64,000 nt of DNA from Escherichia coli. GTDB taxonomy: Bacteria; Pseudomonadota; Gammaproteobacteria; Enterobacterales; Enterobacteriaceae. The stretch lies in assembly GCF_044324785.1 (NCBI RefSeq), contig NZ_CP172127.1; one strand, written 5' to 3'. Position 1 is the first letter of the stretch, and each line of letters opens with the position of its first letter. Shown piece by piece: positions 1,009 through 20,703 of this stretch. Made by a program: the position numbers and the translations under genes. Below the pieces are notes generated by a model. It was not told the origin of the DNA and did no database searches. It was given only the letters and a program-made list of their open reading frames with translations.

Positions 1009-1342
1009 GAGAACCTCCCGCTACAGTTGCGCCCATGTCATTAACCATGCTTTGCCATATCTCACGCCCGACGTCAGTCAATCCGTCCTTAGTGACGCAA
1101 CGTTCAAGAAGCTCGATCCCCACGGTTTCCCACTGCGGGTAGAACACTTTCATGGCTGCCAGTGTGTAGCTATCGATCAGGCTGCGAACGCCTTTTACTC
1201 CATTGACGATTTCCACACGGACGGCCTCGCCGTCCGCATCAACCATGAAATAGTCCCCGCCGCTGGTGGAGGTAATGTGGTTATACAGTGCCGACGCATA
1301 CTTATTTGCCAGCGCATTCAGTCGGAAATTTTTAGTAATCAT
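1001..1342 (-). CDS. hypothetical protein (mobile element, 113 aa)
   Basis: ORF overlapping the downstream ORF start by 8 nt, typical of translational coupling. No recognisable motif. Confidence 0.45.
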   Translation of the reverse strand: MITKNFRLNALANKYASALYNHITSTSGGDYFMVDADGEAVRVEIVNGVKGVRSLIDSYTLAAMKVFYPQWETVGIELLERCVTKDGLTDVGREIWQSMVNDMGATVAGGSHA

Positions 1343-1352
1343 GGCTCCATCC

Positions 1353-1955
1353 TCAGTGCGTCACTGGTTCCGCTGGCATGCCGTTTTCATTCAGTTCAGC
1401 TATAAAGCTGTTGTGAAGTTCAGCAAGCGTTTCACGCCCAAATGGAGTCAGTGCTCCTTGTTCCACATCCATCATGGCTCTGTAGAAAATGATGGCGCGT
1501 TCTGTGCCAGACTCGATGCCAAAACGTTCTATCATCGCGCCCTCAATGTTGTTTGCCATAGCGAGGCGCTCTGCTACTGGATACAGCGGCATGGCGACGA
1601 TGCCGTTGGAATAAACAGCCACTTCGGAAGGATTGCCAGTATCATCAATGATGCTGACAGTGCCGTTTTCCTCTCTCATTTCCAGCATGAATACTGTTGC
1701 GATCAGCCATCTCCACATAATGACGTTATGCTGTGATGTGTAATCGAAATATCCCTGGTTGCCGCCATCGGCAATAGCGAGATGTATTGACATACCTTCA
1801 TCTGGTTTATCGTCATAATCCCCGGCATCCAGACGATTTACGGCATCAATATATGAGATGGCCTCAACGCGTTCTGTCATGCCATCGTTGCTGCGGTACA
1901 TGATGTTTACGCCGTCAGGCGTTGCTTCTGCATGGAAAGTTAAGAAATTATTCAT
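1353..1955 (-). CDS. hypothetical protein (mobile element, about 200 aa)
   Basis: ORF 1353-2060 trimmed to the ATG at 1955-1953 (MNNFLTFHAEATPDG...) which lies 2 nt after the stop of the upstream 73-aa ORF; longer start would overlap that gene. Confidence 0.4.
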   Translation of the reverse strand: MNNFLTFHAEATPDGVNIMYRSNDGMTERVEAISYIDAVNRLDAGDYDDKPDEGMSIHLAIADGGNQGYFDYTSQHNVIMWRWLIATVFMLEMREENGTVSIIDDTGNPSEVAVYSNGIVAMPLYPVAERLAMANNIEGAMIERFGIESGTERAIIFYRAMMDVEQGALTPFGRETLAELHNSFIAELNENGMPAEPVTH

Positions 1956-2169
1956 GTTTCGCTTCGCCTGAATGATTCTGTAACTCATATTTGCCCAACA
2001 ATTCGTCCGCTTCCTGAATAGCTTCTGGTACGCCATTGAGCAGTGACATAACCGCGCCAATCATTAACTTGTCTCTGTTGCTGGGGCTGGCCCCTTCAAG
2101 CCAGAACCCTAAAACAGTCTGAACCTGTTCGATGCGACATTGCGCTTCAATGAGCTGGATGTTGGTCAT
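1948..2169 (-). CDS. hypothetical small protein (73 aa)
   Basis: ORF in operon-like array, start overlaps upstream ORF stop (2166-2169). Confidence 0.4.
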   Translation of the reverse strand: MTNIQLIEAQCRIEQVQTVLGFWLEGASPSNRDKLMIGAVMSLLNGVPEAIQEADELLGKYELQNHSGEAKHE

Positions 2170-2429
2170 TTCGCACTCTCCACATCGATTAAACCGATAT
2201 CTATCAGGGAGGTAACTTTTTGTAGCCAGCTATTGATTACTGTCGCCTGTTCCCCTCCCACCGAGGGAACAATCTCATTCATCACATGAACCAGACCTGT
2301 GCGCGCTCTGGTAAGCCGTTCAGTCGCGCAATCTGCGGGAGTGAATGTGTCTGGATATGGCTCTTCACGCCCCAGCAATGATTCAATTTCCAGCTCACAC
2401 GGATGACGATAAATTAAGTTGATATTCAT
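2166..2429 (-). CDS. hypothetical small protein (87 aa)
   Basis: ORF in operon-like array; 4-nt overlap with upstream ORF. Confidence 0.4.
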   Translation of the reverse strand: MNINLIYRHPCELEIESLLGREEPYPDTFTPADCATERLTRARTGLVHVMNEIVPSVGGEQATVINSWLQKVTSLIDIGLIDVESAK

Positions 2430-2620
2430 TTTTCACCCCCAAGAATTACCAGCTCGGCACGGGCATCGTTAACCAAAGATGAGCACGCTTTAATCGCATC
2501 CACGACATCAGCAGCGTCCATTTCTTCAGCCGAAAGACTGACAGCAACCAGGACAGCCGCTGCTTGCTCGATTAATTGAAGTGCGGACGTAAGGCGAGGG
2601 GTATTAATTGAGTTATTCAT
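2426..2620 (-). CDS. hypothetical small protein (about 64 aa)
   Basis: ORF 2426-2677 trimmed to ATG at 2620 ([10 protein letters not shown]...) preceded by a G-rich Shine-Dalgarno-like stretch. Confidence 0.35.
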   Translation of the reverse strand: MNNSINTPRLTSALQLIEQAAAVLVAVSLSAEEMDAADVVDAIKACSSLVNDARAELVILGGEK

Positions 2621-3680
2621 TGGTTGCCCCCGTTTTTCCTGGCATTTCGCCACCTTCCAGCAGGAAATGAACGTCACGAACGGCGAGATCCAATATCGCG
2701 AGTAACGCCTTCAGTCTTTCGTCTCGTGAGGGAGAGTTGCTCACCAGAATGTCGTTAATCACTTCTGTCAGTGTGATGATCTGGCTTGTGCGTTCGAGGG
2801 GATCCATATGCACATCGTAGGTTTTAATCATGAGCCACCTCCATGCGGATACGACCAGCAAAAAAGCAGACGTGATCGCGCACCAGAGAACGGCGAGCAT
2901 CGCGTTCAGACTCGGCAGCAATATGATGAATTTTGGCGGTAATTGTCGGGCAATCGCGGCGAACTGCGGCGATAATCCAGATAAATTGCGGTTTTTGGGT
3001 AGGGGTAGTAGCCAGCATGTGGCAGCCTCCATTCGATAGCATGTAACGCTACCACCGGAAACGCCAATTTCGCTGGTGGTAGCCCAGACAGGGTTGGCGT
3101 AACCGGCTCGAATGGATACCGGCGCTTCCGAAGAAGCCCCTGCCTGAGCCACCATTGATTGACAAAGGCGCTGGATTATACACCAACGCCCAAAAAATGG
3201 GTGAGTCAGACCTACGACATAAAAAAAGACGCTCGGCGCGTCATATGTCGCCATTCGATTTACCAGGACGCCAATCCCGGCACCCGTTTTATGAGGTGCC
3301 TTATAACCATAAACCGTGTTGCCGCATAACGGCAAGCTCTTTTTTATGGACTCCGAAAACTCGCTATTGGAAGCACCAGATGCACAGTACATCGCGCTCA
3401 TTTCGTTAACGTCACGCACGTGGACGAATGTTTTTGTGGAGTCACTACACGAGCGGAAGACATCATCTACGACCAGAAATTTTCTGGCGCAGCCGCTGAC
3501 CTTCTCAACGCTAACACCATCGACCGTAATTTCTGACATAGTTAAGGCATCCGCTCCCACCACCAGAAAATGATAAACTTTGCTTGTATCTGCTGTATTA
3601 ATGCCAGACTTTGCTGTCATATTGCTGGATTTTGGCGACATACCTGCCAGTGAAAATGTCTTCTTCTGGACGGTTAGCAT
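2613..3680 (-). CDS. hypothetical protein; gene structure uncertain (355-aa ORF, possibly two genes)
   Basis: Single uninterrupted ORF with a GGAGG Shine-Dalgarno 7 nt before its ATG at 3680; however a second strong GGAGGTG ribosome-binding site precedes an internal ATG at 2831 and the middle of the ORF has a W/C-rich composition atypical of real protein. Confidence 0.3.
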
Positions 3681-3856
3681 TTGTTAACCTCCGCGAACTC
3701 CTTCATGAAACGTGCCAGCGGTTGTACGCATGGCGATTGATACCCGTCGCGATAAAACGTCACTCGGTTGTGAGACACGCTTTCGACAGTAACGAGTGCT
3801 CCGTGGGCATCTTTGTAGCGTTTTTGAGGTTGTGGTGTTCCTGTCGGCTTAAACAT
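3674..3856 (-). CDS. hypothetical small protein (about 60 aa)
   Basis: ORF 3674-3943 trimmed to internal ATG (MFKPTGTPQPQK...) so that it does not run deep into the upstream gene; stop abuts the next ORF start. Confidence 0.3.
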   Translation of the reverse strand: MFKPTGTPQPQKRYKDAHGALVTVESVSHNRVTFYRDGYQSPCVQPLARFMKEFAEVNKC

Positions 3857-4682
3857 GGACCGCCTCCAGACGCTTGGCGAGCCAGCGTTGCGACAGGCGG
3901 GTGAGTTCTCCTTTGCGCTGCTCATATTCCATGCCCATATCAATTAACGTGATATTGGTGCTTTCGAGATATGAGAGGTGCTCAAGCTGTTCTGCGTTCA
4001 TATGGTCGCGAGGTTCGCCAGAATAGCCATTTATCCGCGCCCACTGCTTAGCAGTTAGCCCACCAAGAACGATACGAGAAATCATATTGCTCTCGTTTGT
4101 GTAGTGGTGTTGCTGCGTCGTTTTCCCCTGCTCGGCACGGGCCATATTCAGCGCATCGCACATTGGCTTAAAGTTGTTTGCGGCACTAATACGGGCTTTT
4201 AGCTGGCGACGATAGCGGGCGGCGATTTCAGGCACGCTACGCTGTAATTCTTCCTCGCACTGGATGAAATAACGACGGATAGCGCGACCCTGATCATTGC
4301 GTTCGATCATTGCCAGTTCTTTCGCCATTCCGACACTTAACAGATAGTCTTTGCCGGGTCTGCCAGACTGCTTAATCTTGCTGTAAGCCGCGCCATTCGG
4401 GCTTTTCCCCAAATTTGGGGAAATTGTTTTATGGACTGAGTAATCGTGCCCAATGGTGAAGTCATATTCAGAGATGCGATCAGTGATCCATGTAGAGAAG
4501 TCTTTTCCCACGCCCAACGCTTTGTGTAACGCTTTTGCGCTAACAATATTGGTTTCACGCCCACCGATATGACCAGGAATAACCGGGACAATTGCGGCAA
4601 ATTCATTACCGTTAATTGTGCCCAGAGAGGCGTTCAGATGAGGGGCGGCCTCAGAAATTAATCTGCTTTTTTCGATGTTCAT
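3849..4682 (-). CDS. phage antirepressor-like protein (AntA N-terminal / KilA-C-like C-terminal)
   Basis: 277-aa ORF; sequence features reminiscent of prophage antirepressor families (…AKALHKALGVGKDFSTWITDRI… and C-terminal …ELAMIERNDQGRAIRRYFIQCEEEL…). Family call from memory, not searched. Confidence 0.5.
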   Translation of the reverse strand: MNIEKSRLISEAAPHLNASLGTINGNEFAAIVPVIPGHIGGRETNIVSAKALHKALGVGKDFSTWITDRISEYDFTIGHDYSVHKTISPNLGKSPNGAAYSKIKQSGRPGKDYLLSVGMAKELAMIERNDQGRAIRRYFIQCEEELQRSVPEIAARYRRQLKARISAANNFKPMCDALNMARAEQGKTTQQHHYTNESNMISRIVLGGLTAKQWARINGYSGEPRDHMNAEQLEHLSYLESTNITLIDMGMEYEQRKGELTRLSQRWLAKRLEAVHV

Positions 4683-4694
4683 TTTCAGTCTCCG

Positions 4695-5126
4695 TTAGGC
4701 GGCGTTAAACGCGTCCGGGTAGAGTTTCAGAATGTCGGCAATTTCCTGCTGAGAAAGTCCGTTGTGATCATTTATGTTCGCAAGATGGTTAACATGAGTG
4801 ATCACTTTCAGAACATCACCACGGCAGGAGAAACGGTAGCGGAGGTGTGTTCCGATACCATCAGGATTCTTTTCGTCGATACGCTCCAGAATGATTCCAA
4901 GCTGGCGTTCTAACTCTGTTGCATAGTTACGACCAGAAGACAGACGGCAGTAGCGAAGAATGTCATTTTCTGTCCATCCCTCTATACCAGTACGCAGCAT
5001 ATAGACTCTGGCACGATGTTTTTTCGGTGTGCGCTTTGGTGCTTGAAGGGATTTTTTCAGGGGCGTAACATCAGACACGCGAATATCTGAATTAGCCGCC
5101 TGTAATGGGCGGTTTTTCTTTTCCAT
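4695..5126 (-). CDS. hypothetical protein (mobile element, 143 aa), basic N-terminus
   Basis: ORF immediately downstream of alpA-like gene with start/stop overlap at 5126. Confidence 0.45.
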   Translation of the reverse strand: MEKKNRPLQAANSDIRVSDVTPLKKSLQAPKRTPKKHRARVYMLRTGIEGWTENDILRYCRLSSGRNYATELERQLGIILERIDEKNPDGIGTHLRYRFSCRGDVLKVITHVNHLANINDHNGLSQQEIADILKLYPDAFNAA

Positions 5127-5329
5127 CAGGCCACCTTCCCGCGGCGTTCTGCCAGCCAGTTGTGAATCTCAACCGCATCAAACGCAGTTATTTTTTCTCC
5201 CAGCTTTACTGGACGTGGTAGTGAACCGTTTCTTACTTTACGGTCGATGGTGGATACACTAACGCCCAGCAATTCAGCCAGGCGAAAGCGTCTGATATAG
5301 CCTTTTGTAGGGATAGTGTCGATGTTCAT
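5126..5329 (-). CDS. alpA: AlpA-family prophage transcriptional regulator / excisionase-like HTH protein
   Basis: 67-aa ORF MNIDTIPTKGYIRRFRLAELLGVSVSTIDRKVRNGSLPRPVKLGEKITAFDAVEIHNWL...; size and HTH pattern match AlpA/Vis-like proteins of P4/CP4-type elements. Confidence 0.7.
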   Translation of the reverse strand: MNIDTIPTKGYIRRFRLAELLGVSVSTIDRKVRNGSLPRPVKLGEKITAFDAVEIHNWLAERRGKVA

Positions 5330-5435
5330 GATTCCCGTAACCTCTTAGCGATAGTTGTTGCTTCGTTACGAGAAATCTAGCTGTATAGATATACAATGAA
5401 AAGGTACTGTAATTTTGCAGTACCTCTATAGTAAG

Positions 5436-6386
5436 TTAACTATCCACTTTGCCATTTGCCGCAGATCGTAGATGTTTAAGAATTACATCTTCATTAGTTA
5501 TCATAAGTGGTGGAACTTCGTCTAAATGACGAACAAGACAGTCACGCCACTTCTCAGGGCTTATTTCTTTCCTTTCTCCCCTGCATTCATTTGGATACTT
5601 ACTAAGTATATAAATTGCAGATTTTAATAGTTTCTCCCTATTGACTGCGTACCGTTCGGCACGTTTATTAACTTTTAGCGTATTTATATCATTGGATAAC
5701 TTGTTTGCGGATGGTTTGTGCATGGGTCTGTCATAAATATATTTTCCTCCATTTATAAGAAGATTGTATTCATAGTCAGTTATATACATTTTGTTTCGGC
5801 TTATTTCATACCAGCCGTCAATATAAAAAGCTCCGATTTCATAATTATTCGATTTGCTAAACTCGTCACATCTCGGAGGTATCAGTTCGCATACAGAGAT
5901 CTCCCAATCATCCCATTCTGATAGCTCCCGCTCATCGTTATCTATGAACGCAGGCGGAATTGCTAATAGACCGCTCCATCTTTCGATATCTCTTTCATCC
6001 TTCCCAACATTGTATCGCTCTATAACTGAGAAATGTTCTGATTTGTATGAAAACCTCATAAAATACATATAGTTATCGCTATTTTTATAATCAAGTGATG
6101 ATAAGCCATATGATTCGAGATTATCTGCCTTATTGCTCAGATCAAGGAGATAATTCTCATGTGCTGCTTTTGTATCTATATGAAAAATACTATCTGTTTC
6201 AACTTTAAGTAATTCTGGCTCGGCATCTTCATTTTTTGGGTAATGGTAAAACAATTCAATAGGTGGAATTTTTATACATATTTCTAAAACCCCAATTGCT
6301 GCATAGTGTATTAAATCGGATACTTCACATCCGGCCAGTTTGGCTGCTTTATCCAAAGAATAATATTTATGCGCAGGTAATTTCAT
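5436..6386 (-). CDS. hypothetical cargo protein (316 aa), AT-rich, between integrase and alpA
   Basis: Long ORF with markedly AT-rich codon usage compared with flanking genes; N-terminus has an HTH-like stretch (SLDKAAKLAGCEVSDLIHYAAIG); acidic, Y/N/K-rich remainder without recognisable catalytic motif. Confidence 0.55.
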   Translation of the reverse strand: MKLPAHKYYSLDKAAKLAGCEVSDLIHYAAIGVLEICIKIPPIELFYHYPKNEDAEPELLKVETDSIFHIDTKAAHENYLLDLSNKADNLESYGLSSLDYKNSDNYMYFMRFSYKSEHFSVIERYNVGKDERDIERWSGLLAIPPAFIDNDERELSEWDDWEISVCELIPPRCDEFSKSNNYEIGAFYIDGWYEISRNKMYITDYEYNLLINGGKYIYDRPMHKPSANKLSNDINTLKVNKRAERYAVNREKLLKSAIYILSKYPNECRGERKEISPEKWRDCLVRHLDEVPPLMITNEDVILKHLRSAANGKVDS

Positions 6387-6404
6387 TATGAATCTTTCCT
6401 CTCA

Positions 6405-7658
6405 TCATGCTCTGATTGGCGTTACGTTGTAGTCTTTTCCGCTTTCCAGTGCCACCAGCAGATCTGCCCACTGTGCTAGTGCTGCTTTACGCTCATCAAA
6501 ATACTGATGACGGTTATAAATCCCCTCTACGCCCTTAATGCGATGATTGAGGCATCGTTCCGCCACGACAGGATCAACACCCAATGCTGCTAAATGAGTA
6601 CGTGCGGTGCGTCGGAAGTCGTGAATCGTGAAATTAGGCACATCCGGAATTTCGGCGCGAACCTTAGCCAGTGCTACGGGTAAAGTGCTTTCCTGAATAT
6701 GTGGGATCATTCTGTTTTGCATCTTCCTGGCCGGAAGCACCCATGCGCTATTACATGAAAAGGTGTGTAGCTCTCTCAACCATTCAACGGCTGGGGAAGG
6801 TAGAGGTATATCAATAGGGTCTCCGTTTTTGCTGCGTTCTTCCGGCAAATGCCATACCGCACCATCTAAATCAAACTCTTCCCATCGTGCGGCGCATAAC
6901 TCCATCTTACGAACGCATAGTGCCAGCAATAGTTTAAATGTCAGTTCGTTTTGGCGGCTGAATCCTTTTGCGGTGCGCATAGCCTCGAATAGTCTGATAA
7001 GCTCATCGCGAGTTAGCCAACGGTCGCGGGAAACCTCTTTACCACCAGCATCAGATACTTCAAACGCTGAACAAGGGTTTATCTCCAGAGCGTGGCGTTT
7101 TATCCCATAGTCAAAGATACGGCGTGTCCAGCGCAATACATCTGTTGCTATCGTTGGTGCTCCTCGGTCAACGATACCTTTCAACATGTCGTCAATGTGG
7201 CGTGGCTTAACGTCCTCTACCTTCATATGCCCAATGCAGGGGTTAATATCCTTATCAATTCTCCGGCGAAGGATATCGGGATGTTTCCATCTCGGAAGTA
7301 TCTGGCGCTCGAAGTATTCGGAGGCCAGATCTGAAACACGCATGGCGTTTTTCTCAGCCTCCATTTTTGCCAGTGCTTCAGCTTTTCGTTCCTGTTTCTC
7401 TGCTGCTACGTCATAGCCAAGAGCAACTCTGGCTGACAGCTCTTTTGCTGTTTCTCTGGCTTTTGATAGTGACAGTTCGGAGTAAGAGCCTATAACCATA
7501 GCCCGCTGCTTTCCTGCGAGCTTATAGCGGAATCGCCAGAACGGGACTGTGTAGTTTTTGGGGTAGCAAATATAAAGGCCGTTGCCGTCTGCCTTGCCAT
7601 CAAATCTGTCTCCCGCCTTTATCCATGCGCGGATCTGCATATCTGTGAGTTTTGGCAT
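6405..7658 (-). CDS. int: tyrosine site-specific integrase, P4-type
   Basis: ORF 6405-7742 trimmed to MPKLTDMQIRAWIKAGDRFDG... (typical P4-integrase N-terminus); C-terminal catalytic region contains ...HDFRRTARTHLAALGV... and ...GIYNRHQY... (R/H-x-x-R/Y signature). Confidence 0.85.
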   Translation of the reverse strand: MPKLTDMQIRAWIKAGDRFDGKADGNGLYICYPKNYTVPFWRFRYKLAGKQRAMVIGSYSELSLSKARETAKELSARVALGYDVAAEKQERKAEALAKMEAEKNAMRVSDLASEYFERQILPRWKHPDILRRRIDKDINPCIGHMKVEDVKPRHIDDMLKGIVDRGAPTIATDVLRWTRRIFDYGIKRHALEINPCSAFEVSDAGGKEVSRDRWLTRDELIRLFEAMRTAKGFSRQNELTFKLLLALCVRKMELCAARWEEFDLDGAVWHLPEERSKNGDPIDIPLPSPAVEWLRELHTFSCNSAWVLPARKMQNRMIPHIQESTLPVALAKVRAEIPDVPNFTIHDFRRTARTHLAALGVDPVVAERCLNHRIKGVEGIYNRHQYFDERKAALAQWADLLVALESGKDYNVTPIRA

Positions 7659-7686
7659 TGCGAATACCTGAATATCGAATATGGGT

Positions 7687-7738
7687 GTGTACATAAAGCA
7701 ATGTACATGAAAGTCATTATGTACACCTCTATGTACAC
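7687..7738. promoter_or_regulatory. four direct copies of ATGTACA-like motif just upstream of int: candidate integrase arm-type binding sites / att region
   Basis: gtgtacat (7687-7694), atgtacatg (7701-7709), atgtacac (7719-7726), atgtacac (7731-7738) visible directly in sequence. Confidence 0.35.
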
Positions 7739-7783
7739 GCATATTGTGCGCTTTGTTGCGTCGTTATGATAGCTCATGATAAC

Positions 7784-7820
7784 AAAAAAGCCCGACATTT
7801 CGCGGGCTTTGTGGTTTTTT
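7784..7820. terminator. bidirectional rho-independent terminator downstream of yicC
   Basis: aaaaaagcccg-acatttcg-cgggctttgtggtttttt: GC stem flanked by A-run and T-run. Confidence 0.5.
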
Positions 7821-7846
7821 GCTGCTTGGTGATTTTTACTGATAGC

Positions 7847-8710
7847 TTATTCGATATTCTGGATCTGCTCGCGCATCTGCTCAATCAACACTTTCAGCTC
7901 GATGGCGGAGTTTGTCACTTCGGCATTGATAGACTTCGAAGCAAGAGTGTTCGACTCGCGGTTGAACTCCTGCATCATAAAGTCCAGACGACGGCCAACC
8001 GCTTCTTTTTTCTTCAGAATGTTGTAGGTCTCTTTGACATGCGCTTCGAGGCGATCCAGTTCTTCGGCAACGTCAATTCGTTGTGCCAGCAGAACCAACT
8101 CCTGCTCCAGACGGTTGTTTTCCAGTTGCACCTGAGCATCTTCCAGCTTCGCGACCAGACGCTCACGCTGCCATTGCAGGATTTCCGGCATATGGGCGCG
8201 GACTTTGACCACTTCGGCGGTGACGCCTTCCAGACGCTGCTCGATCAATGCTTTCAGCGCCTGACCTTCGGTTTCGCGCGCGACGATAAAGTCGTCCAGC
8301 GTACCATCCAACGCCGCGAGAATTTCAGCGGCAATCGCGTCGAGATCCTGCTCCTGGGCTGCCATCACGCCCGGCCAGCGTAGAATATCAACCGGGTTGA
8401 TTTCCCCTTCGTCACTCTGCATTTTTACCCAGTTCGCGGCAGTTACCAGCTGTTTAGCCAGTTTTTCGTTAAGGATCAGCTCACCTTGTGCGCTAACATC
8501 TGGCTCATAACGCAGGGTACATTCCACTTTACCGCGCGTCAGGCGAGAACGAATACGCTCGCGAACGACAGGTTCAAGGCTACGGAACTGCTCCGGCAGA
8601 CGAAAGTAAGTTTCCAGATAACGCTGGTTTACCGAGCGCATTTCCCAGGTTGCGCTCCCCCATTCACCCTTGATTTCACGCCGGGCGTAGGCGGTCATAC
8701 TGCGGATCAT
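7847..8710 (-). CDS. yicC: YicC family stress-induced protein
   Basis: 287-aa ORF MIRSMTAYARREIKGEWGSATWEMRSVNQRYLETYFRLPEQFR... recognised as YicC; conserved position next to rph. Confidence 0.9.
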   Translation of the reverse strand: MIRSMTAYARREIKGEWGSATWEMRSVNQRYLETYFRLPEQFRSLEPVVRERIRSRLTRGKVECTLRYEPDVSAQGELILNEKLAKQLVTAANWVKMQSDEGEINPVDILRWPGVMAAQEQDLDAIAAEILAALDGTLDDFIVARETEGQALKALIEQRLEGVTAEVVKVRAHMPEILQWQRERLVAKLEDAQVQLENNRLEQELVLLAQRIDVAEELDRLEAHVKETYNILKKKEAVGRRLDFMMQEFNRESNTLASKSINAEVTNSAIELKVLIEQMREQIQNIE

Positions 8711-8836
8711 AGACGTTCCTGTTTATAAAAGGAGAGGTGGAAGGATTATAGCCATCGATGCCTTGTCAGGATAGGAATAACCGCCGGAAGTCCGTATAAT
8801 GCGCAGCCACATTTGTTTCAAGCCGGAGATTTCAAT

Positions 8837-9553
8837 ATGCGTCCAGCAGGCCGTAGCAATAATCAGGTGCGTCCCGTTACCCTGACTCGTAACTATACAA
8901 AACATGCAGAAGGCTCGGTGCTGGTCGAATTTGGCGATACCAAAGTATTGTGTACCGCCTCTATTGAAGAAGGCGTGCCGCGCTTCCTGAAAGGTCAGGG
9001 CCAGGGCTGGATCACCGCAGAGTACGGCATGCTGCCACGTTCTACCCACACCCGTAACGCGCGTGAAGCGGCGAAAGGTAAGCAGGGTGGACGCACCATG
9101 GAAATCCAGCGTCTGATCGCCCGTGCTCTTCGCGCGGCAGTAGATTTGAAAGCGCTGGGTGAGTTCACTATTACGCTGGACTGCGACGTGCTTCAGGCTG
9201 ATGGTGGCACGCGTACCGCGTCGATTACGGGTGCCTGCGTGGCGCTGGCAGATGCGCTACAGAAGCTGGTGGAAAACGGCAAGCTGAAAACCAACCCGAT
9301 GAAAGGGATGGTAGCCGCGGTTTCTGTCGGGATTGTGAACGGCGAAGCGGTTTGCGATCTGGAATACGTTGAAGACTCAGCCGCAGAGACCGACATGAAC
9401 GTAGTGATGACCGAAGACGGGCGCATCATTGAAGTGCAGGGGACGGCAGAAGGCGAGCCGTTCACCCATGAAGAGTTACTCACCTTGTTGGCGCTGGCCC
9501 GAGGGGGAATCGAATCCATTGTAGCGACGCAGAAGGCGGCGCTGGCAAACTGA
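8837..9553 (+). CDS. rph: ribonuclease PH (full length)
   Basis: ORF trimmed to [42 protein letters not shown]...; 238 aa, intact C-terminus. Confidence 0.9.
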
Positions 9554-9560
9554 TTTTTAA

Positions 9561-9586
9561 GGCGACTGATGAGTCGCCTTTTTTTT
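9561..9586 (+). terminator. rph-pyrE intercistronic attenuator hairpin with T8 tract
   Basis: ggcgact-gatg-agtcgcc followed by tttttttt, read directly; matches the known UTP-sensitive pyrE attenuator location. Confidence 0.7.
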
Positions 9587-9618
9587 GTCTGTAGAAAAGT
9601 AAGATGAGGAGCGAAGGC

Positions 9619-10260
9619 ATGAAACCATATCAGCGCCAGTTTATTGAATTTGCGCTTAGCAAGCAGGTGTTAAAGTTTGGCGAGTTTACGCTGAAGTCCG
9701 GGCGCAAAAGCCCCTATTTCTTCAACGCCGGGCTGTTTAATACCGGGCGCGATCTGGCACTGTTAGGCCGTTTTTACGCTGAAGCATTGGTGGATTCCGG
9801 CATTGAGTTCGATCTGCTGTTTGGCCCTGCTTACAAAGGGATTCCGATTGCCACCACAACTGCCGTGGCGCTGGCGGAGCATCATGACCTGGACCTGCCG
9901 TACTGCTTTAACCGCAAAGAAGCAAAAGACCACGGTGAAGGCGGCAATCTGGTCGGTAGCGCGTTACAAGGACGCGTAATGCTGGTGGATGATGTGATCA
10001 CCGCCGGAACGGCGATTCGCGAGTCGATGGAAATTATTCAGGCCAATGGCGCGACGCTTGCTGGCGTGTTGATTTCGCTCGATCGTCAGGAACGGGGGCG
10101 CGGCGAGATTTCGGCAATTCAGGAAGTTGAGCGTGATTACAACTGCAAAGTGATCTCTATCATCACCCTGAAAGACCTGATTGCTTACCTGGAAGAGAAG
10201 CCGGAAATGGCGGAACATCTGGCGGCGGTTAAGGCCTATCGCGAAGAGTTTGGCGTTTAA
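9619..10260 (+). CDS. pyrE: orotate phosphoribosyltransferase
   Basis: [40 protein letters not shown]...; PRTase motif [13 protein letters not shown]. Confidence 0.95.
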
Positions 10261-10295
10261 AAATATGCGCTGTGCAGGGTTTTTGCTGTGCGCAG

Positions 10296-10326
10296 CGTGA
10301 TGCGCTTTAAGATATCGTGTTAATCT
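10296..10326 (+). promoter_or_regulatory. possible retron promoter (extended -10 TGt-TAATCT, weak -35)
   Basis: TG at 10318-10319 followed by taatct at 10321-10326, about 6 nt upstream of the predicted msr 5' end at 10332. Weak match; could also be read-through from pyrE. Confidence 0.25.
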
Positions 10327-10331
10327 GCTTT

Positions 10332-10525
10332 CGCCAGCAGTGGCAATAGCGTTTCCGGCCTTTTGTGCCGGGAGGGTCGGCGAGTCGCCGACTTAACGCC
10401 AGTAGTATGTCCATATACCCAAAGTCGCTTCATTGTACCTGAGTACGCTTCGCGTACGTCGCGCTGACGCGCTCAGTACAGTTACGCGCCTTCGGGATGG
10501 TTTAATGGTATTGCCGCTGTTGGCG
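10332..10525 (+). ncRNA. msr-msd: retron msr-msd non-coding RNA (template and primer for msDNA), bounded by a1/a2 inverted repeats
   Basis: a1 10332-10348 (cgccagcagtggcaata) pairs with a2 10509-10525 (tattgccgctgttggcg) as a 17-bp RNA duplex with two G-U wobbles; unpaired G at 10349 in the context AUAG-C is the candidate branching G; msr hairpins ccggc-cttttgt-gccgg (10355-10371) and gtcggcg-agt-cgccgac (10376-10392); msd palindromic block 10434-10480. Confidence 0.6.
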
Positions 10526-10557
10526 CCTCTTTTGGCCGCCGTGATGTGGAGAGTGGA

Positions 10558-11517
10558 ATGGATGCTACCCGGATAACCCTTCTGGCGCTCGATTTGTTCG
10601 GCTCGCCGGGCTGGAGCGCCGATAAAGAAATACAGCGGCTGTATGCGCTCAGTAATCATGCCGGACGCCATTACCGACGCATTATTCTTTCTAAACGCCA
10701 CGGTGGTCAGCGGCTGGTGTTAGCCCCTGATTACTTGCTCAAAACCGTACAGCGCAACATTCTTAAGAACGTTCTTTCACAATTTCCGCTTTCCCCTTTT
10801 GCTACAGCCTACCGACCAGGTTGCCCAATTGTCAGCAACGCGCAGCCTCACAGCCAACAGCCACAAATACTGAAACTCGATATCGAAAACTTTTTCGATA
10901 GTATTAGCTGGTTACAGGTCTGGCGTGTGTTTCGCCAGGCCCAGTTGCCACGTAATGTGGTAACCATGCTGACCTGGATTTGTTGTTATAACGACGCGTT
11001 ACCGCAGGGGGCACCAACTTCGCCAGCCATTTCCAATCTTGTGATGCGCTGTTTTGATGAGTGCATCGGGGCATGGTGCCAGGCACGAGGAATTACCTAC
11101 ACCCGCTACTGCGATGACATGACTTTTTCAGGTCACTTCAATGCCCGCCAGGTTAAAAATAAAGTGTGCGGATTGTTAGCGGAGATGGGCCTGAGCCTCA
11201 ATCAACGCAAAAGCTCCCTGATAGCTGCCTGTAAGCGCCAGCAGGTAACCGGGATTGTTGTTAATCACAAACCACAGCTTGCCCGCGAAGCGCGGCGGGC
11301 GCTGCGTCAGGAAGTACACTTATGCCAAAAATATGGCGTCATTTCGCATCTTAGTCGTCGTGGTGAACTTGATCCTTCATGCGATCTCCATGCACAGGCA
11401 ACGGCGTATCTTTATGCTTTGCAGGGAAGAATAAACTGGCTATTGCAAATCAATCCTGAGGATGAGGCCTTTAAACAGGCGAGGGAAAGTGTAAAGCGAA
11501 TGCTGTTGGCATGGTAA
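10558..11517 (+). CDS. ret: retron-type reverse transcriptase (319 aa)
   Basis: Start at ATG 10558 preceded by GGAGAG; contains RT motifs ...LPQGAPTSPAISNL... and ...ITYTRYCDDMTFSG... (YxDD box); size typical of retron RTs with no extra fused domain. Confidence 0.9.
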   Translation: MDATRITLLALDLFGSPGWSADKEIQRLYALSNHAGRHYRRIILSKRHGGQRLVLAPDYLLKTVQRNILKNVLSQFPLSPFATAYRPGCPIVSNAQPHSQQPQILKLDIENFFDSISWLQVWRVFRQAQLPRNVVTMLTWICCYNDALPQGAPTSPAISNLVMRCFDECIGAWCQARGITYTRYCDDMTFSGHFNARQVKNKVCGLLAEMGLSLNQRKSSLIAACKRQQVTGIVVNHKPQLAREARRALRQEVHLCQKYGVISHLSRRGELDPSCDLHAQATAYLYALQGRINWLLQINPEDEAFKQARESVKRMLLAW

Positions 11518-11525
11518 GAAAAGCG

Positions 11526-11547
11526 TCAGGCAGACGTTTCTGCCTGA
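11526..11547. terminator. hairpin between convergent RT and slmA genes
   Basis: tcaggcaga-cgtt-tctgcctga perfect 9-bp stem in the 43-bp gap. Confidence 0.45.
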
Positions 11548-11560
11548 ACGTTTGGGAGAA

Positions 11561-12157
11561 TTACTGCAACTGTGCGGCAATTAGCGGCCAGCGGGCGTCA
11601 AAATCATCCGTCGGGCGGTATTTAAACTCGCTGCGGACAAAGCGTGACAGCATACCTTCACAGAAGGCCAGGATCTGGCTTGCCAGCAGGGTTTCATCGG
11701 TGGTGTAACCTTCACCCTCACGCATTCTCTTTTCGCGCAATACCTGACGCAACTGCGCTTCAATACGCTCGAACAGCTGGTTGATGCGCCCTTGCAGGCG
11801 ATCCTGTTCAAACATTAGTGCATGACCAGTGAGGATGCGGGTCAGGCCAGGATTACGCTCACCAAAACCGAGAAGCAGCAACACAATCAGACGCAGGCGC
11901 GCTGTGGTGTCCTTCTCATCTTTCAGAATCAGATTGATGCGAGTAATCAGGCTATCTTCGATAAACTCAATCAGGCTATCGAACATGCGGGTCTTACTGG
12001 GGAAGTGGCGATACAGTGCCGCTTCGGAAACGCCGACAGAGGCGGCCAGTTTTGCCGTCGTGATACGTTGGCTTCCATCGCTGGATTCCAGCATCAGCGC
12101 CAGAGACTGAAGTATTTCCTCGCGACGGTTCCTTTTCGCAGTTTGTTTTTCTGCCAT
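11561..12157 (-). CDS. slmA: nucleoid occlusion factor SlmA (TetR family)
   Basis: ORF trimmed to [52 protein letters not shown]... Confidence 0.9.
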
Positions 12158-12263
12158 GTTACAAAATACCCCTGAAAATAAGCACTTGCCAGGCGGCACC
12201 CACGCTATGACCGCAAACGAAATGTTTGCGGCTATGTTATGACGTTATTCGGATGCGTATGTG

Positions 12264-12722
12264 TTACTGACGACCAGAGTGACCAAAGCCGCCTTCACCG
12301 CGGTCGGTGGCGTCGAAATCTTCCACCAGATTAAATTCAGCCTGTACTACCGGAACAAAAATCATCTGGGCGATGCGTTCGCCAGGTTGAATGGTGAAGC
12401 TGTCCTGACCACGGTTCCACACGGAAATCATCAACTGGCCCTGATAGTCGGAATCGATCAATCCTACCAGGTTACCAAGCACGATACCGTGCTTATGTCC
12501 CAATCCGGAGCGCGGCAGCATCATTGCCGCCAGTGAAGGATCGGCAATATGAATCGCCAGCCCGGTCGGAACCAGCGTAGTGTCACCCGGAGCCAGTTCT
12601 ACGGCGTCGTCGAGACAGGCACGCAGGTCAAGTCCGGCAGAGCCAGAGGTGGCATAAGTCGGGAGCGGAAATTCCTTCCCAACGCGCGGGTCCAGAATCT
12701 TAACGTCGATTTTTTTCATCAT
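12264..12722 (-). CDS. dut: dUTP diphosphatase
   Basis: [37 protein letters not shown]... recognised. Confidence 0.9.
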
Positions 12723-13920
12723 AACGGGTCACGATCTCGTCGAGTAATAATTGGCCAAGGAGCTCTTTGCGCTCAAGCGGTAAGACTTTATCTCCGTCCT
12801 GCCAGAAAAGGTGTAATGCGTTGTTGTCGCTGTTAAATCCTTGAGTTGGCTGGGAAACATCGTTCGCGCAGATCAGATCAAGGTTTTTACGGATACGTTT
12901 TTGCCGGGCGTATTCTTCCACATTATTTGTTTCGGCGGCAAATCCAACGACGTAGGGTCGATGGTCTTTTAGTGCGGCAACGCCTGCGACGATATCGGGG
13001 TTTTTAACCATTTTTATTGTTAATTCATCACCCTGCGTGGCCTGCTTTTTGATTTTCTCTGGGGCCACGGTAGCTGCGCGATAATCCGCCACGGCGGCGC
13101 AACCGATAAAAATATTTTGCTGCTGTACAGAAGCATTCACGGCCGCTTCCATTTCCAGCGCAGTCATCACATCAACACGTTTAACAAACGGTGGCGTCGG
13201 TAGTGAAACCGGACCTGATACCAGCGTGACGTTCGCGCCACGACGGGCAGCGGCGGCGGCGATAGCAAAACCCATCTTGCCTGAGCTGTGATTAGAGATA
13301 TAACGCACCGGATCGAGCGGTTCACGCGTCGGGCCGGCGGTAATCATAATGCTCAGATGTTTCAGGTCGTTGACGGGCGAAAAATGCGCTACCGCCATAT
13401 CAACAATGGTTAACGGATCGAGCATTCGCCCAGGGCCGATATCACCACAAGCCTGACTGCCACTGTCTGGCCCCCAGATGAGCAAACCACGGGAAGCAAG
13501 CACCTCTAAATTATGCTGCGTGGCAGCGGCACGGTACATCTGCTGGTTCATGGCGGGGAGCACGGCTACAGGCGCAGGAGTGGCCAGACAAATCGTCGAT
13601 ACCAGATCATTCGCCATTCCGGCAGCAACACGGGCAATCAAATCTGCCGTGGCAGGGGCGAGAATCACTAAATCAGCCCATTTACCCAGCTCAATATGGC
13701 CCATTGCGGCTTCGGCTGCCGGGTCCAGCAGACTGTCGGAAACGGGATACCCAGAAACCGCCTGCAAGCTAAGTGGGGTGATAAAGGCTTTTGCCGCTTC
13801 GGTCATGGCTACGCGGACGTCGGCCCCGCGCTCGCGCAAACGACGCACCAGTTCAGGGGTTTTATAGGCAGCAATACCGCCGCTAACGCCGAGAACGATT
13901 TTTTTACCGGCCAGGCTCAT
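12700..13920 (-). CDS. coaBC: bifunctional phosphopantothenoylcysteine decarboxylase / synthetase
   Basis: ORF trimmed to [37 protein letters not shown]... Confidence 0.9.
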
Positions 13921-14085
13921 GATGATTTTTCCTGTTGGGTGACACCAGAAGTTGGCGATTTTATCACAATACTTTTGTTGTCGTGCCTTCACCTGAGAAT
14001 CACTTTGCGAGGCGCTTTCCAGGATTGAAAACTGGCCGTCGATTTAACGGAACGGCTATGACAGGATGCGAGCACCACAAAGGAG

Positions 14086-14760
14086 GTGAAGGTGAAAAAC
14101 AATGCACAGCTGTTGATGCCGCGCGAAAAAATGCTGAAGTTTGGTATTAGCGCCTTAACGGATGTCGAGCTGCTGGCGCTATTTCTGCGTACCGGAACGC
14201 GCGGTAAAGATGTATTAACCCTGGCAAAAGAGATGCTGGAGAATTTCGGCTCTCTTTATGGCTTGTTAACCTCTGAATATGAACAGTTTAGTGGCGTTCA
14301 TGGAATTGGTGTGGCGAAATTCGCCCAGTTAAAGGGGATTGCCGAACTGGCGCGGCGTTACTACAACGTGCGGATGCGTGAAGAAAGCCCTTTACTCAGC
14401 CCGGAGATGACGAGGGAATTTTTACAAAGCCAGCTCACGGGTGAGGAGCGGGAGATCTTTATGGTGATCTTTCTCGACTCACAACACCGGGTTATAACGC
14501 ATAGCCGACTTTTTTCCGGCACGCTAAACCATGTTGAAGTCCATCCTCGGGAAATTATCCGCGAAGCGATAAAAATAAACGCCTCGGCGCTGATCCTTGC
14601 ACATAATCACCCTTCGGGTTGTGCTGAACCCAGTAAAGCGGATAAACTCATTACTGAACGGATAATAAAGAGTTGTCAGTTCATGGATTTACGCGTGCTC
14701 GACCATATCGTGATTGGGCGTGGAGAGTATGTTTCTTTTGCCGAACGCGGCTGGATTTAA
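14086..14760 (+). CDS. yicR: RadC-like JAB domain protein YicR
   Basis: C-terminal ...[21 protein letters not shown]... JAB/MPN motif; conserved position. Confidence 0.85.
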
Positions 14761-14955
14761 CCCGCTATGCGCGATCCTTCGGGATCTTTGTCTGTTCGGG
14801 ACTTGAGCACATCGCTGAGTCAGCGTATACTACGCCACCTTTGAGAATCTCGGGTTTGGCATTTGGGCCTGGCAATCGAGAGTTCACATAGAACTGCGAT
14901 GACCGGGCTGTAAAGCCTGACGAGGCGCCAATACCCCATACGAAGCTCGAGCTAA

Positions 14956-15213
<258 letters not shown>

Positions 15214-15230
15214 GTACTTAGAGGAAATAA

Positions 15231-15401
<171 letters not shown>

Positions 15402-15425
15402 TTCTCGCTTTGATGTAACGAAAAA

Positions 15426-15447
15426 CCTCGCTCCGGCGGGGTTTTTT
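15426..15447 (+). terminator. rho-independent terminator after rpmBG
   Basis: cctcgc-tccg-gcgggg followed by tttttt. Confidence 0.5.
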
Positions 15448-15498
15448 GTTATCTGCTTACCCCCATATTGATTGCATCTGTTCATTCCTGGAGATGCT

Positions 15499-16308
15499 AT
15501 GCCTGAATTACCTGAAGTTGAAACCAGCCGCCGCGGCATAGAACCGCATCTCGTTGGTGCAACCATTCTTCATGCGGTGGTGCGCAACGGACGCTTGCGC
15601 TGGCCGGTTTCAGAAGAGATCTACCGTTTAAGCGACCAACCAGTGCTTAGCGTGCAGCGGCGGGCTAAATATCTGCTGCTGGAGCTGCCTGAGGGCTGGA
15701 TTATCATTCATTTGGGGATGTCTGGCAGCCTGCGCATCCTTCCAGAAGAACTTCCCCCTGAAAAGCATGACCATGTGGATTTGGTGATGAGCAACGGTAA
15801 AGTGCTGCGCTACACCGATCCGCGCCGCTTTGGTGCCTGGCTGTGGACCAAAGAGCTGGAAGGGCATAATGTGCTGACCCATCTTGGACCGGAGCCGCTT
15901 AGCGACGATTTCAACGGTGAGTATCTGCATCAGAAGTGTGCGAAGAAAAAAACGGCGATTAAACCGTGGCTGATGGATAACAAGCTGGTGGTAGGGGTAG
16001 GGAATATCTATGCCAGCGAATCGCTGTTTGCGGCGGGGATCCATCCGGATCGGCTGGCGTCATCACTGTCGCTGGCAGAGTGTGAATTGTTAGCTCGGGT
16101 GATTAAAGCGGTGTTGCTGCGTTCGATTGAGCAGGGCGGTACAACGCTGAAAGATTTTCTGCAAAGTGATGGTAAACCGGGCTATTTCGCTCAGGAATTG
16201 CAGGTTTACGGGCGAAAAGGTGAGCCGTGTCGGGTGTGCGGTACGCCGATTATGGCGACTAAACATGCGCAGCGGGCAACGTTTTATTGTCGGCAGTGCC
16301 AGAAGTAA
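15499..16308 (+). CDS. mutM: formamidopyrimidine-DNA glycosylase
   Basis: ORF trimmed to [20 protein letters not shown]...; C-terminal zinc finger CRVCGTPI...CRQCQK. Confidence 0.9.
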
Positions 16309-16346
16309 TTCATGCGCGCCGGATGGCATACCATCCGGCATAAACG

Positions 16347-18111
<1,765 letters not shown>

Positions 18112-18424
18112 AGTAAATAGCTGACTTATGGATGTGCTGGGGATTCTATGTATTTAGCTGTGGCTTTACCATTACTTTTCCCGTTTTTGACTTAAATAGC
18201 AATTTACCCGCCAATTCTTGCTGAACATCTATACTTTTTTTGTATTTTTATGCGATTCATTGATTTCTGCAGTACGTGCAGGAAGGAATCGCAGAGCAAC
18301 AGTGAAAGAATATGGTTGCTAATGATTTTATTTGATTGATTTCTTTATTGAAAATCAACAATGTGCTTAAAAATCATTCGGGTCGGATTGCCGCGAAAGA
18401 AGTGATACACTAGCGCGTCAATAT

Positions 18425-18474
18425 CAGTGCGGTATCAGTATTCAGGTAGCTGTTGAGCCTGGGGCGGTAGCGTG
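18425..18474 (+). promoter_or_regulatory. JUMPStart element containing ops site (GGCGGTAGCGTG) for RfaH-dependent antitermination of the waaQ operon
   Basis: cagtgcggtatcagtattcaggtagctgttgagcctggggcggtagcgtg read directly; ops 12-mer at 18463-18474. Confidence 0.8.
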
Positions 18475-18523
18475 CTTTTTCTGCTTCACCTTAATCGGAT
18501 AATCTCAACAAAAAGAGTTACTT

Positions 18524-19582
18524 GTGGATAAGCCATTTCGAAGAATTTTGCTCATTAAGATGCGTTTTCATGGGGATATGTTATTAACTACTCCCGTCAT
18601 TAGTTCGCTGAAAAAAAATTACCCTGACGCAAAAATCGATGTGCTGCTTTATCAGGACACCATCCCGATCCTGTCTGAAAATCCAGAGATTAACGCGCTC
18701 TACGGCATAAAAAATAAAAAAGCAAAAGCCTCAGAAAAAATTGCCAACTTTTTTCATCTCATCAAGGTATTACGTGCCAATAAGTATGACCTTATCGTCA
18801 ATCTTACCGATCAATGGATGGTTGCTATACTGGTTCGCTTATTAAATGCCCGTGTGAAAATTTCCCAGGATTATCATCATCGGCAGTCTGCTTTTTGGCG
18901 TAATAGTTTCACTCATTTGGTGCCGTTGCAGGGTGGAAATGTGGTGGAAAGTAACTTATCCGTGCTATCGCCATTGAGACTTGAATCGTTGGTGAAGCAG
19001 ACAACCATGAGTTACCCGCCTGCAAGCTGGAAACGTATGCGTCGCGAACTTGATCACGCTGGTGTTGGACAAAATTATGTGGTTATCCAACCTACGGCGC
19101 GGCAAATCTTCAAATGCTGGGACAACGCCAAGTTTTCCGCTGTGATTGATGCCTTACATGCTCGTGGTTATGAAGTCGTTCTGACGTCCGGCCCAGATAA
19201 AGACGATCTGGCCTGCGTCAATGAAATTGCCCAGGGATGCCAGACGCTACCAGTAACGGCGCTGGCCGGAAAGGTGACCTTCCCGGAACTTGGTGCGTTA
19301 ATCGATCATGCCCAGCTGTTTATTGGCGTTGATTCCGCACCGGCGCATATTGCCGCTGCAGTTAATACGCCGCTGATATCGCTGTTTGGTGCGACAGACC
19401 ATATTTTCTGGCGTCCCTGGTCAAATAACATGATTCAATTCTGGGCGGGAGATTACCGGGAAATGCCAACGCGCGATCAGCGTGACCGAAATGAGATGTA
19501 TCTTTCGGTTATTCCGGCGGCAGATGTCATTGCTGCTGTCGATAAATTACTGCCCTCCTCCACGACAGGTACGTCGTTATGA
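18524..19582 (+). CDS. waaQ: LPS heptosyltransferase III
   Basis: GTG start at 18524 keeps the conserved heptosyltransferase N-terminus (RRILLIK...GDML.TTPV); product recognised as WaaQ. Confidence 0.8.
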   Translation: MDKPFRRILLIKMRFHGDMLLTTPVISSLKKNYPDAKIDVLLYQDTIPILSENPEINALYGIKNKKAKASEKIANFFHLIKVLRANKYDLIVNLTDQWMVAILVRLLNARVKISQDYHHRQSAFWRNSFTHLVPLQGGNVVESNLSVLSPLRLESLVKQTTMSYPPASWKRMRRELDHAGVGQNYVVIQPTARQIFKCWDNAKFSAVIDALHARGYEVVLTSGPDKDDLACVNEIAQGCQTLPVTALAGKVTFPELGALIDHAQLFIGVDSAPAHIAAAVNTPLISLFGATDHIFWRPWSNNMIQFWAGDYREMPTRDQRDRNEMYLSVIPAADVIAAVDKLLPSSTTGTSL

Positions 19583-20703
19583 TCGTTGCTTTTTGTTTAT
19601 ATAAATATTTTCCCTTTGGCGGTTTGCAGCGCGATTTCATGCGTATTGCTCAGACAGTCGCCGCCCGAGGTCATCATGTTCGGGTTTATACCCAGTCGTG
19701 GGAAGGCGAATGCCCTGATGTATTTGAACTGATCAAAGTGCCGGTTAAATCGCATACCAATCACGGGCGCAATGCGGAGTATTTTGCCTGGGTGCAAAAA
19801 CATTTACGCGAACATCCCGTCGATAGAGTCGTTGGATTTAATAAAATGCCGGGGCTGGACGTTTATTATGCCGCTGATGTTTGTTATGCCGAGAAAGTAG
19901 CGCAGGAAAAAGGCTTTTTCTATCGCCTGACGTCACGTTATCGCCATTATGCCGCCTTTGAGCGGGCAACCTTCGAACAGGGCAAGCCGACACAGCTGCT
20001 GATGCTGACAGATAAGCAAATCGCCGATTTCCAGAAACATTATCAGACTGAAGCGGAGCGTTTTCATATTCTGCCACCGGGGATTTATCCTGATCGTAAA
20101 TATAGCCAGCAGCCAGCCAATAGCCGTGAAATCTTCCGTAAGAAGAATGGAATAACCGAACAACAATATTTATTGTTGCAGGTCGGTTCAGACTTCACGC
20201 GTAAAGGTGTCGATCGTTCCATTGAAGCACTTGCTTCATTACCGGATACGCTGCGCCACAACACATTGCTATATGTTGTTGGGCAGGATAAACCGCGAAA
20301 ATTTGAGGCGCTGGCAGAAAAACGCGGCGTGCGCAGTAATGTTCACTTCTTCTCGGGGCGCAACGATGTCTCGGAATTAATGGCGGCGGCGGATTTATTA
20401 CTGCATCCTGCCTACCAGGAAGCGGCGGGAATTGTGCTGCTGGAAGCGATTACTGCAGGATTACCGGTACTAACAACTGCCGTTTGCGGCTATGCGCATT
20501 ATATTGTCGACGCCAATTGCGGCGAGGCTATTGCTGAGCCATTCCGCCAGGAAACATTGAATGAGATTTTACGCAAAGCGTTAACGCAATCTTCATTGCG
20601 CCAGGCCTGGGCGGAAAATGCGCGACATTATGCTGATACACAAGATTTATACAGTCTGCCAGAAAAAGCGGCGGATATCATAACGGGTGGTCTGGATGGT
20701 TGA
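19579..20703 (+). CDS. waaG: LPS core glucosyltransferase I (GT4)
   Basis: 374-aa [42 protein letters not shown]... Confidence 0.9.

Follow-up and report, generated by a model that had tools for sequence, protein, structure and literature searches.

The closest described counterpart of the element treated here is retron-Ec107 (Retron-Eco5) of Escherichia coli. According to the sections that Simon 2019 (PMC6868368) devotes to it, Retron-Eco5 replaces a palindromic 34-bp intergenic sequence, has no mobile element nearby and encodes a reverse transcriptase (RT) for which YCDD is the named variant of the YxDD box. By its title, Herzer 1992 likewise locates the retron between pyrE and ttk (slmA), where it takes the place of a 34-bp palindrome. 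In its passage on Eco5, Mestre 2020 (PMC7736814) remarks that the retron adjoins an orotate phosphoribosyltransferase (OPRTase) gene. The multicopy single-stranded DNA (msDNA) of Ec107 is reported to be produced, with a length that depends on RNase H (Simon 2019, PMC6868368), and expression of Ec107 to rise in starvation and in stationary phase (Herzer 1996, as related in Simon 2019, PMC6868368). Ec107 was omitted from the phage tests of Millman 2020. Here we analyzed a 64,000-nt stretch of E. coli DNA (contig NZ_CP172127.1), called the window below, which carries a retron cassette between pyrE and slmA. We are highly confident that this cassette is an allele of retron-Ec107, that it stands alone, with msr-msd and RT only, and that it follows the msDNA mechanism predicted here. 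The element is therefore already known: it was reported from this very site in 1992, and PADLOC includes a model of its family.

Results and discussion

The cassette occupies positions 10261-11560 (1300 bp, plus strand) in the E. coli region rph-pyrE / slmA-dut-coaBC. It is inserted between the stop codon of pyrE at 10260 (plus strand) and that of slmA at 11561 (minus strand). In K-12 the two stops are 36 bp apart, and the spacer holds the palindrome CGCCGGATGAAAAGTCATCCGGCG. A junction comparison with K-12 showed that cassette and spacer share one base at either end, and thus that 34 bp were exchanged. The same locus is occupied in the E. coli carriers. An earlier note on this DNA, made from its letters, had placed a retron filling the pyrE-slmA gap at the same coordinates, and the junctions with the empty site of K-12 proved these limits exact. 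The note had also pointed to a 1.3-kb retron with a 319-residue RT that replaces a short palindrome between pyrE and ttk in some E. coli isolates, had named Ec107 as the probable identity of an element likely known rather than new, and had found no function established for it. The published position and YCDD box (PMC6868368), together with the 34-bp replacement, the length of about 1.3 kb, the 319 residues and the PADLOC model RT_Ec107-like, bear out this description and the identity, and the literature on Ec107 agrees on the last point. The window copy thus shares with retron-Ec107/Eco5 the pyrE-ttk/slmA locus, the palindrome exchange, the size and the RT, as well as the lack of a prophage context and of an accessory open reading frame (ORF). 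It differs from it as an allelic variant whose differences lie nearly all in the RT gene.

The RT gene (10558-11517, plus strand) encodes 319 amino acids. It starts with an ATG at 10558, 6 nt after a Shine-Dalgarno sequence GGAG (10548-10551), and the beginning of the protein (MDATR...) is identical in all relatives. The protein matches Pfam RVT_1 and contains YCDD at residues 184-187, NAQPH at 94-98 (NAxxH, retron region X) and VTGIVVN at 230-236 (with VTG at 230-232, region Y). This confirms the RT gene of that length with a YxDD box that had been read from the sequence before. YCDD, NAxxH and VTG are invariant in an alignment of 17 proteins that reaches down to 53% identity. The top PADLOC model is RT_Ec107-like (5.2e-132), and the RT_III-A models come next (1.6e-93). 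By sequence, the closest solved proteins are retron RTs, with 1.5e-37 for Ec86 against 1.7e-7 for a group II intron RT. A Foldseek search with the AF2 model (mean predicted local distance difference test score, pLDDT, 79) returned retron RTs as its top 18 matches, over the full length. Judged from this model, the protein would be RT throughout, with no part left over for an effector domain.

Upstream of the RT gene lies a non-coding RNA (ncRNA) with the organization of msr-msd. The inverted repeats a1 (10332-10348, plus strand) and a2 (10509-10525, plus strand), detected by repeat search, fold and covariation, form a closing stem of 17 bp. Directly 3' of a1, G10349 (plus strand) is unpaired in the context ATAGC and is the predicted branching (priming) guanosine; the AGC agrees with the context of the retron priming G presented in Simon 2019 (PMC6868368). 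The A27-T28-A29-G30 of the branch site is invariant in 13 aligned sequences. The msr, or RNA part, spans 10332-10406 (plus strand), its 3' end being approximate, and folds into hairpins at 10353-10373 and 10374-10394. The msd, template of an msDNA of about 107 nt, extends over 10402-10508 (minus strand), with ends predicted from the position of a2 and the published length of 107. It is read from right to left, starting beside a2, and forms a long hairpin that forks at its top (10418-10496). A copy of 107 nt that begins at the base beside a2 would end at 10402 and overlap by 5 nt with an msr that is said to measure 75 nt in the 1992 Ec107 abstract, which is consistent with an msDNA of 107 nt. 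The ncRNA folds with -95.8 kcal/mol (z = -6.45 against shuffles), and the predicted 107-nt DNA copy, the reverse complement of 10402-10508, with -22.9 kcal/mol (z = -3.5).

An alignment of 13 Enterobacterales loci gave a consensus structure of 58 pairs, and compensatory double changes affect 20 of these. Paired cells amount to 96.7%; shifting the partners by 1-3 columns lowers this to 30-43%, and the observed covariation was reached in none of 500 shuffles. Compensatory changes occur at 6 of the 16 pairs of the a1/a2 helix and at 7 pairs of helices 3 and 4 (msr); helices 5-8 (msd) are conserved and contribute 6 compensatory pairs. Furthermore, a covariance model built from the 13 sequences found a full-length match on the same strand, directly 5' of the RT, in about 66 of 78 further loci, mostly from Lachnospiraceae and other Firmicutes. 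These compensatory changes in relatives, and the matches upstream of their RTs, show that the structure is not due to chance. The full set of retron ncRNA hallmarks seen earlier 5' of the RT is thus upheld by fold and covariation. The length of 285 nt given to this upstream region is not: it measures 297 nt to the ATG and 285 nt only if counted to an in-frame GTG at 10546, and the ncRNA itself has about 194 nt. An Rfam scan of 9000-13000 (E <= 1) detected neither a retron msr nor an intron family and gave a single chance match to a long non-coding RNA; it supports neither side. The covariance model also produced a weak match on the opposite strand (10418-10496, minus strand, 19.9 bits), which is caused by the near-palindromic msd hairpin and does not represent a second element.

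The a1/a2 stem, the branching G in AGC, the msd hairpin and the size of the RT are also found in Retron-Eco1 (Ec86), the retron studied in most depth, for which structures of RT, msDNA and effector have been solved. Its 320-residue RT is the closest solved one by sequence and heads the fold matches. However, Ec86 has a nucleoside deoxyribosyltransferase (NDT)-like effector and a prophage site, Ec107 has neither, and the two RTs are only about 24-28% identical.

The molecular steps proposed for this cassette are those of established retron biochemistry and are predicted for the window allele by analogy. Transcription would start from an extended -10 promoter of its own just 5' of a1, and read-through from pyrE is possible. 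In the transcript, a1 would pair with a2 and thereby present G10349. The RT would bind the two msr hairpins, and the 2'-OH of G10349 would prime copying of the msd from about 10508 leftwards, for some 107 nt. Host RNase H would then trim the template, yielding a branched RNA-DNA molecule (msDNA-Ec107) of about 107 nt with a long forked DNA hairpin. As the molecular mechanism expected here, msDNA synthesis is well grounded.

Allele, distribution and history

The RT is 96% identical to UniProt Q05804_ECOLX (14 amino acid differences), which we take to be the entry of the 1992 Ec107 paper. The exact RT protein is present on 288 public contigs. Carriers account for 381 of 5426 complete E. coli genomes (7%), with one chromosomal copy each, and every inspected E. 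coli copy lies at the pyrE-slmA locus and has an intact 319-residue RT; one carrier is a genome of enteropathogenic E. coli (EPEC) O127:H6. The window copy is a distinct allele, the best nucleotide identity among the 381 complete-genome copies being 96.9%. The 960-nt RT gene accounts for 36 differences and the ncRNA region for only 1-2; the ncRNA shares 99.5% identity with its counterpart in E. coli AR_0013. The core DNA of the window (1-9000 and 11561-21000) reaches at best about 99.1% identity among the 5426 complete RefSeq E. coli genomes, so that none of the genomes in this collection is closely related to the source strain.

The ratio of nonsynonymous to synonymous divergence (dN/dS) of the RT is 0.13 against a common E. 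coli allele and 0.12 against an allele of cryptic Escherichia, which indicates functional constraint. In the flanking genes it ranges from 0.01 to 0.16, and the RT has a dS 2-3 times as high as the flanks. All alleles examined have an intact RT.

The pyrE|slmA gap also harbors homologs of the RT in cryptic Escherichia (88% identity), in other Enterobacteriaceae (71-72%) and in several Pseudocitrobacter species (68-70%). Others are found in the cyaY|cyaA gap of Leminorella and a relative (loci L007, L008 and L095; 62-64%) and in the cdaR|garD gap of Budvicia (L011) and Pragia (L018; 54%). The Enterobacterales cassettes thus always lie between convergent housekeeping genes. In Pseudocitrobacter (L006, L009 and L010) and Leminorella, the stop of the RT overlaps that of the convergent gene by 4 nt, and there is no terminator hairpin between them. 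RT identity drops in step with the identity of the flanks, which suggests that an old and mainly vertical residence, with loss or allelic replacement, fits better than a recent insertion.

Outside Proteobacteria, RTs from Firmicutes, including Lachnospiraceae, are 40-57% identical and have the same PADLOC RT_Ec107-like model as their best match. The clade-2 Ec107-like stand-alone retrons of metagenomes (PADLOC PDLC03739) belong to the same family, with the same upstream ncRNA architecture and no conserved neighbors. In contrast to these, the element of E. coli, a proteobacterial one, lies at the periphery of the family and is fixed at a single site of the chromosome.

Search for an effector

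All ORFs within 3.5 kb of the RT were clustered all against all for 86 loci, and only syntenic housekeeping genes of close relatives were shared. Ten genes immediately downstream of the RT in Firmicutes loci matched no retron effector model in PADLOC or NCBIfam. These genes are mutually unrelated, and include a response regulator, an aldo-keto reductase, surface proteins and a WYL regulator. Since no neighbor is conserved in the 86 loci, Ec107-like retrons are a stand-alone family, as already noted by Mestre 2020 and by a 2026 SPIRE preprint. In the part of the preprint that treats it, the group clade2_Ec107like (n = 192) is described as having no recurrent accessory modules. A search of the literature on the function of effector-less or stand-alone retrons returned nothing beyond these two sources.

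The tripartite defense retrons of types I-XIII in Mestre 2020 are recognized by an accessory gene or a fused effector domain, and the cassette has neither. Type III-A retrons, with RTs of clade 2 and others (Mestre 2020), are the closest by RT outside the Ec107-like model and have RTs of similar size and motifs. Their mark is an adjacent effector gene of the phosphoribosyltransferase (PRTase)-like kind (clusters 67/113), with or without a winged-helix gene. No PRTase-like or winged-helix effector gene occurs here, and the neighbor PyrE is an ordinary OPRTase; the cassette is therefore not a member of type III-A.

Alternative explanations

Three other readings of the locus were weighed. That the gene belongs to no retron, being a group II intron maturase, a diversity-generating retroelement (DGR), an abortive infection/unknown group RT (Abi/UG, also called defense-associated RT, DRT) or some other RT beside a fortuitous inverted repeat, is scarcely credible. 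It does have sub-threshold similarity to the NCBIfam models group_II_RT_mat, Drt2 and Drt3a, as expected of any RT, but the bit scores are far below the cutoffs: 60 against 300 for group_II_RT_mat (TIGR04416), 56 against 390 for Drt2 and 51 against 200 for Drt3a. No Rfam intron or other RNA family was matched in 9000-13000, the retron-specific NAxxH and VTG are present, and the ncRNA bears every retron hallmark, with covariation. Compared by sequence E-value, retron RTs score over 20 orders of magnitude better than the RTs of group II introns and DRTs, and they come first in the fold ranking. The earlier note had allowed for motifs of a group II intron or another non-retron RT; by the NCBIfam cutoffs, Rfam and the fold ranking, the retron assignment holds, and the non-retron reading is refuted within the limits of a computational analysis.

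By analogy with type III-A, the cassette might instead be a tripartite defense retron whose effector is the adjacent PyrE, regulated by the msDNA-RT complex. The RT_III-A models rank second in PADLOC (1.6e-93), every copy in Enterobacteriaceae is directly preceded by pyrE in the same orientation, and the hairpin after pyrE, having no U-tract, could permit co-transcription. In addition, the tree section of Mestre 2020 (PMC7736814) puts Eco5 on a node with PRTase-linked RTs and remarks on its adjacent OPRTase; the same source, however, reports such a gene next to merely 2 of the 59 members of the branch. PyrE of the window, the sole PRTase nearby, is 100% identical to PyrE of retron-free K-12, and it matches no PADLOC retron PRTase model, its sole match being ShosT (E = 0.021). 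On these two grounds PyrE was rejected as the effector. Moreover, there is no PRTase neighbor in Leminorella, Budvicia, Pragia and about 70 Firmicutes loci, and the arrangement as a whole is very unlikely. We also consider it rather improbable that the cassette is a decaying relic of a type III-A-like retron that lost its effector, has no function and is drifting towards a pseudogene. Such a relic would be in keeping with the absence of an effector at 86 loci, with the patchy presence in E. coli (7%) and with the suggestion, in what Mestre 2020 (PMC7736814) says of this branch, that it may have lost an associated protein. However, the low dN/dS of the RT (0.12-0.13) holds against both close and more distant alleles, the catalytic and retron-specific motifs are invariant across the 17 proteins, compensatory changes maintain the ncRNA helices, and the ncRNA is detectable in distant relatives among Firmicutes. 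The effector-less state is old and stable, because the family spans two phyla and is solo throughout.

For the stand-alone Ec107 allele preferred here, we infer that the RT-msDNA particle must either be the active product itself or rely on a host factor that is universal, because no linked effector was found in E. coli or in any relative, from E. coli to Lachnospiraceae. As to its role, sensing or sequestration of phage or foreign DNA without a dedicated toxin is put forward tentatively, at somewhat below even confidence. A domesticated function tied to starvation or stationary phase is a more doubtful proposal, and a complete lack of benefit to the host seems unlikely.

Several points weigh against this picture of an Ec107 allele that makes msDNA. 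The probable identity as Ec107 is drawn from locus, size, motifs, the name of the PADLOC model and Q05804_ECOLX, an old UniProt entry presumably belonging to the 1992 paper. Of the 319 RT residues, 14 differ from the common allele, none of them at positions invariant in the family, and msDNA production by the window allele is assumed by analogy. A generic sigma-70 scan called no plus-strand promoter in the cassette. A role in defense is disfavored by the lack of an effector and of a mobile-element or defense-island context in Enterobacterales, as well as by the orthologous position across genera and an msd that is not hypervariable. A housekeeping role, in turn, is disfavored by the presence of the cassette in merely 7% of complete E. 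coli genomes.

Other features of the cassette

Two hairpins flank the retron genes. The first (10267-10298, plus strand) lies 3' of the pyrE stop, has no U-tract and folds with a dG of -22.8 kcal/mol (z = -2.9). Hairpins of different sequence occur at the same position after pyrE in the relatives L003 and L006. To judge from its position and fold, it is probably a 3'-end or partial terminator element of pyrE that replaces the lost palindrome. The second, between the stops of RT and slmA (11521-11553, unstranded), was detected by its folds (z = -4.8 on the plus and -5.0 on the minus strand) and by a terminator call on the minus strand (11547-11526). With its U-tract on the minus strand it scores as an intrinsic terminator of slmA, and it probably also terminates the RT, if weakly. 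The cassette thus displaced the bidirectional pyrE/slmA terminator palindrome and brings two substitute hairpins of its own.

An extended -10-like element, TGTTAATCT (10318-10326, plus strand), is located about 6 nt before a1. When this segment was aligned with the relatives L003, L006, L009, L093 and L094, the pattern TGnTAnnnT was found in all Enterobacterales relatives (TGCTATTCT, TGCTATGCT and TGTTATGAT), and by this aligned conservation TGTTAATCT is a putative promoter. E. coli alleles have TGTTAATCT; in other genera the element is TGCTATTCT or TGCTATGCT, with a C directly before the hexamer. A C just 5' of the hexamer is typical of sigma-S promoters. Such a C in the other genera would fit the reported stationary-phase induction of Ec107.

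Both strands of the cassette were examined for small ORFs, and besides the RT gene none was conserved between lineages. A 47-residue ORF with a TTG start (10433-10576, plus strand) lies within the msd and begins MYLSTLRVRRADALST. An ORF with similar residues recurs in cryptic Escherichia and two further lineages of Enterobacteriaceae, and is missing from Pseudocitrobacter. This ORF was rejected as a gene and is read as a by-product of the nucleotide conservation of the msd.

Other features of the window

At the left end of the window (1-7742), a phage-like integrative element abuts yicC and stands in place of the dinD-yicG of K-12-like strains. It contains genes for a tyrosine integrase (6405-7742, minus strand), an AntA/AntB antirepressor (3849-4682) and a repressor-like protein (2613-3680), and related islands extend leftwards with a TOPRIM/DUF927 primase and phage ejection proteins. 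No recognizable defense genes were found in 1-7742. A 316-residue ORF beside the integrase (5436-6386, minus strand) had no match in NCBIfam, PADLOC or PHROGs; its position is the cargo spot where such islands often hold defense genes. The island was rejected as a carrier or partner of the retron because it lacks recognizable defense genes and is also present in E. coli CRE1540, where the pyrE-slmA site is empty. Further to the right, there are a gene for a 1904-residue trimeric autotransporter adhesin (46565-52279, minus strand) and the C-terminal part of an Rhs core protein (62030-63961, minus strand), which reaches the end of the window. Both are ordinary for this region of E. coli, which also has the waa cluster, gpmI, lldP and mtlAD.

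Conclusions

Identification of the cassette adds little by itself. Its value is that of a clean natural case for studying what a retron does without an effector. The system is tractable: it is self-contained within 1.3 kb, it lies at a defined site with a natural empty allele in K-12, and it has conserved relatives across Enterobacteriaceae and as far as the Lachnospiraceae of the gut. Its independence of a toxin partner also makes the pair of RT and ncRNA a candidate scaffold for the production of single-stranded DNA in vivo, a use to which it has already been put in older antisense work and in an editing test in human cells. The conservation of site, RT and ncRNA across genera sharpens the question of what an effector-less retron does and gives no answer to it. 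Our proposal, held with clearly less than even confidence, is that these retrons are old, mostly vertically inherited residents of their sites (pyrE|slmA; cdaR|garD) rather than recent insertions, and that their RT-msDNA particle works without a dedicated effector. If this were true, the particle could serve as an effector-free anti-phage decoy or sensor, or as a domesticated factor of the starvation phase. The 34-bp palindrome of K-12 would then be one state of a long-lived presence/absence polymorphism, and not the ancestral target of an insertion.

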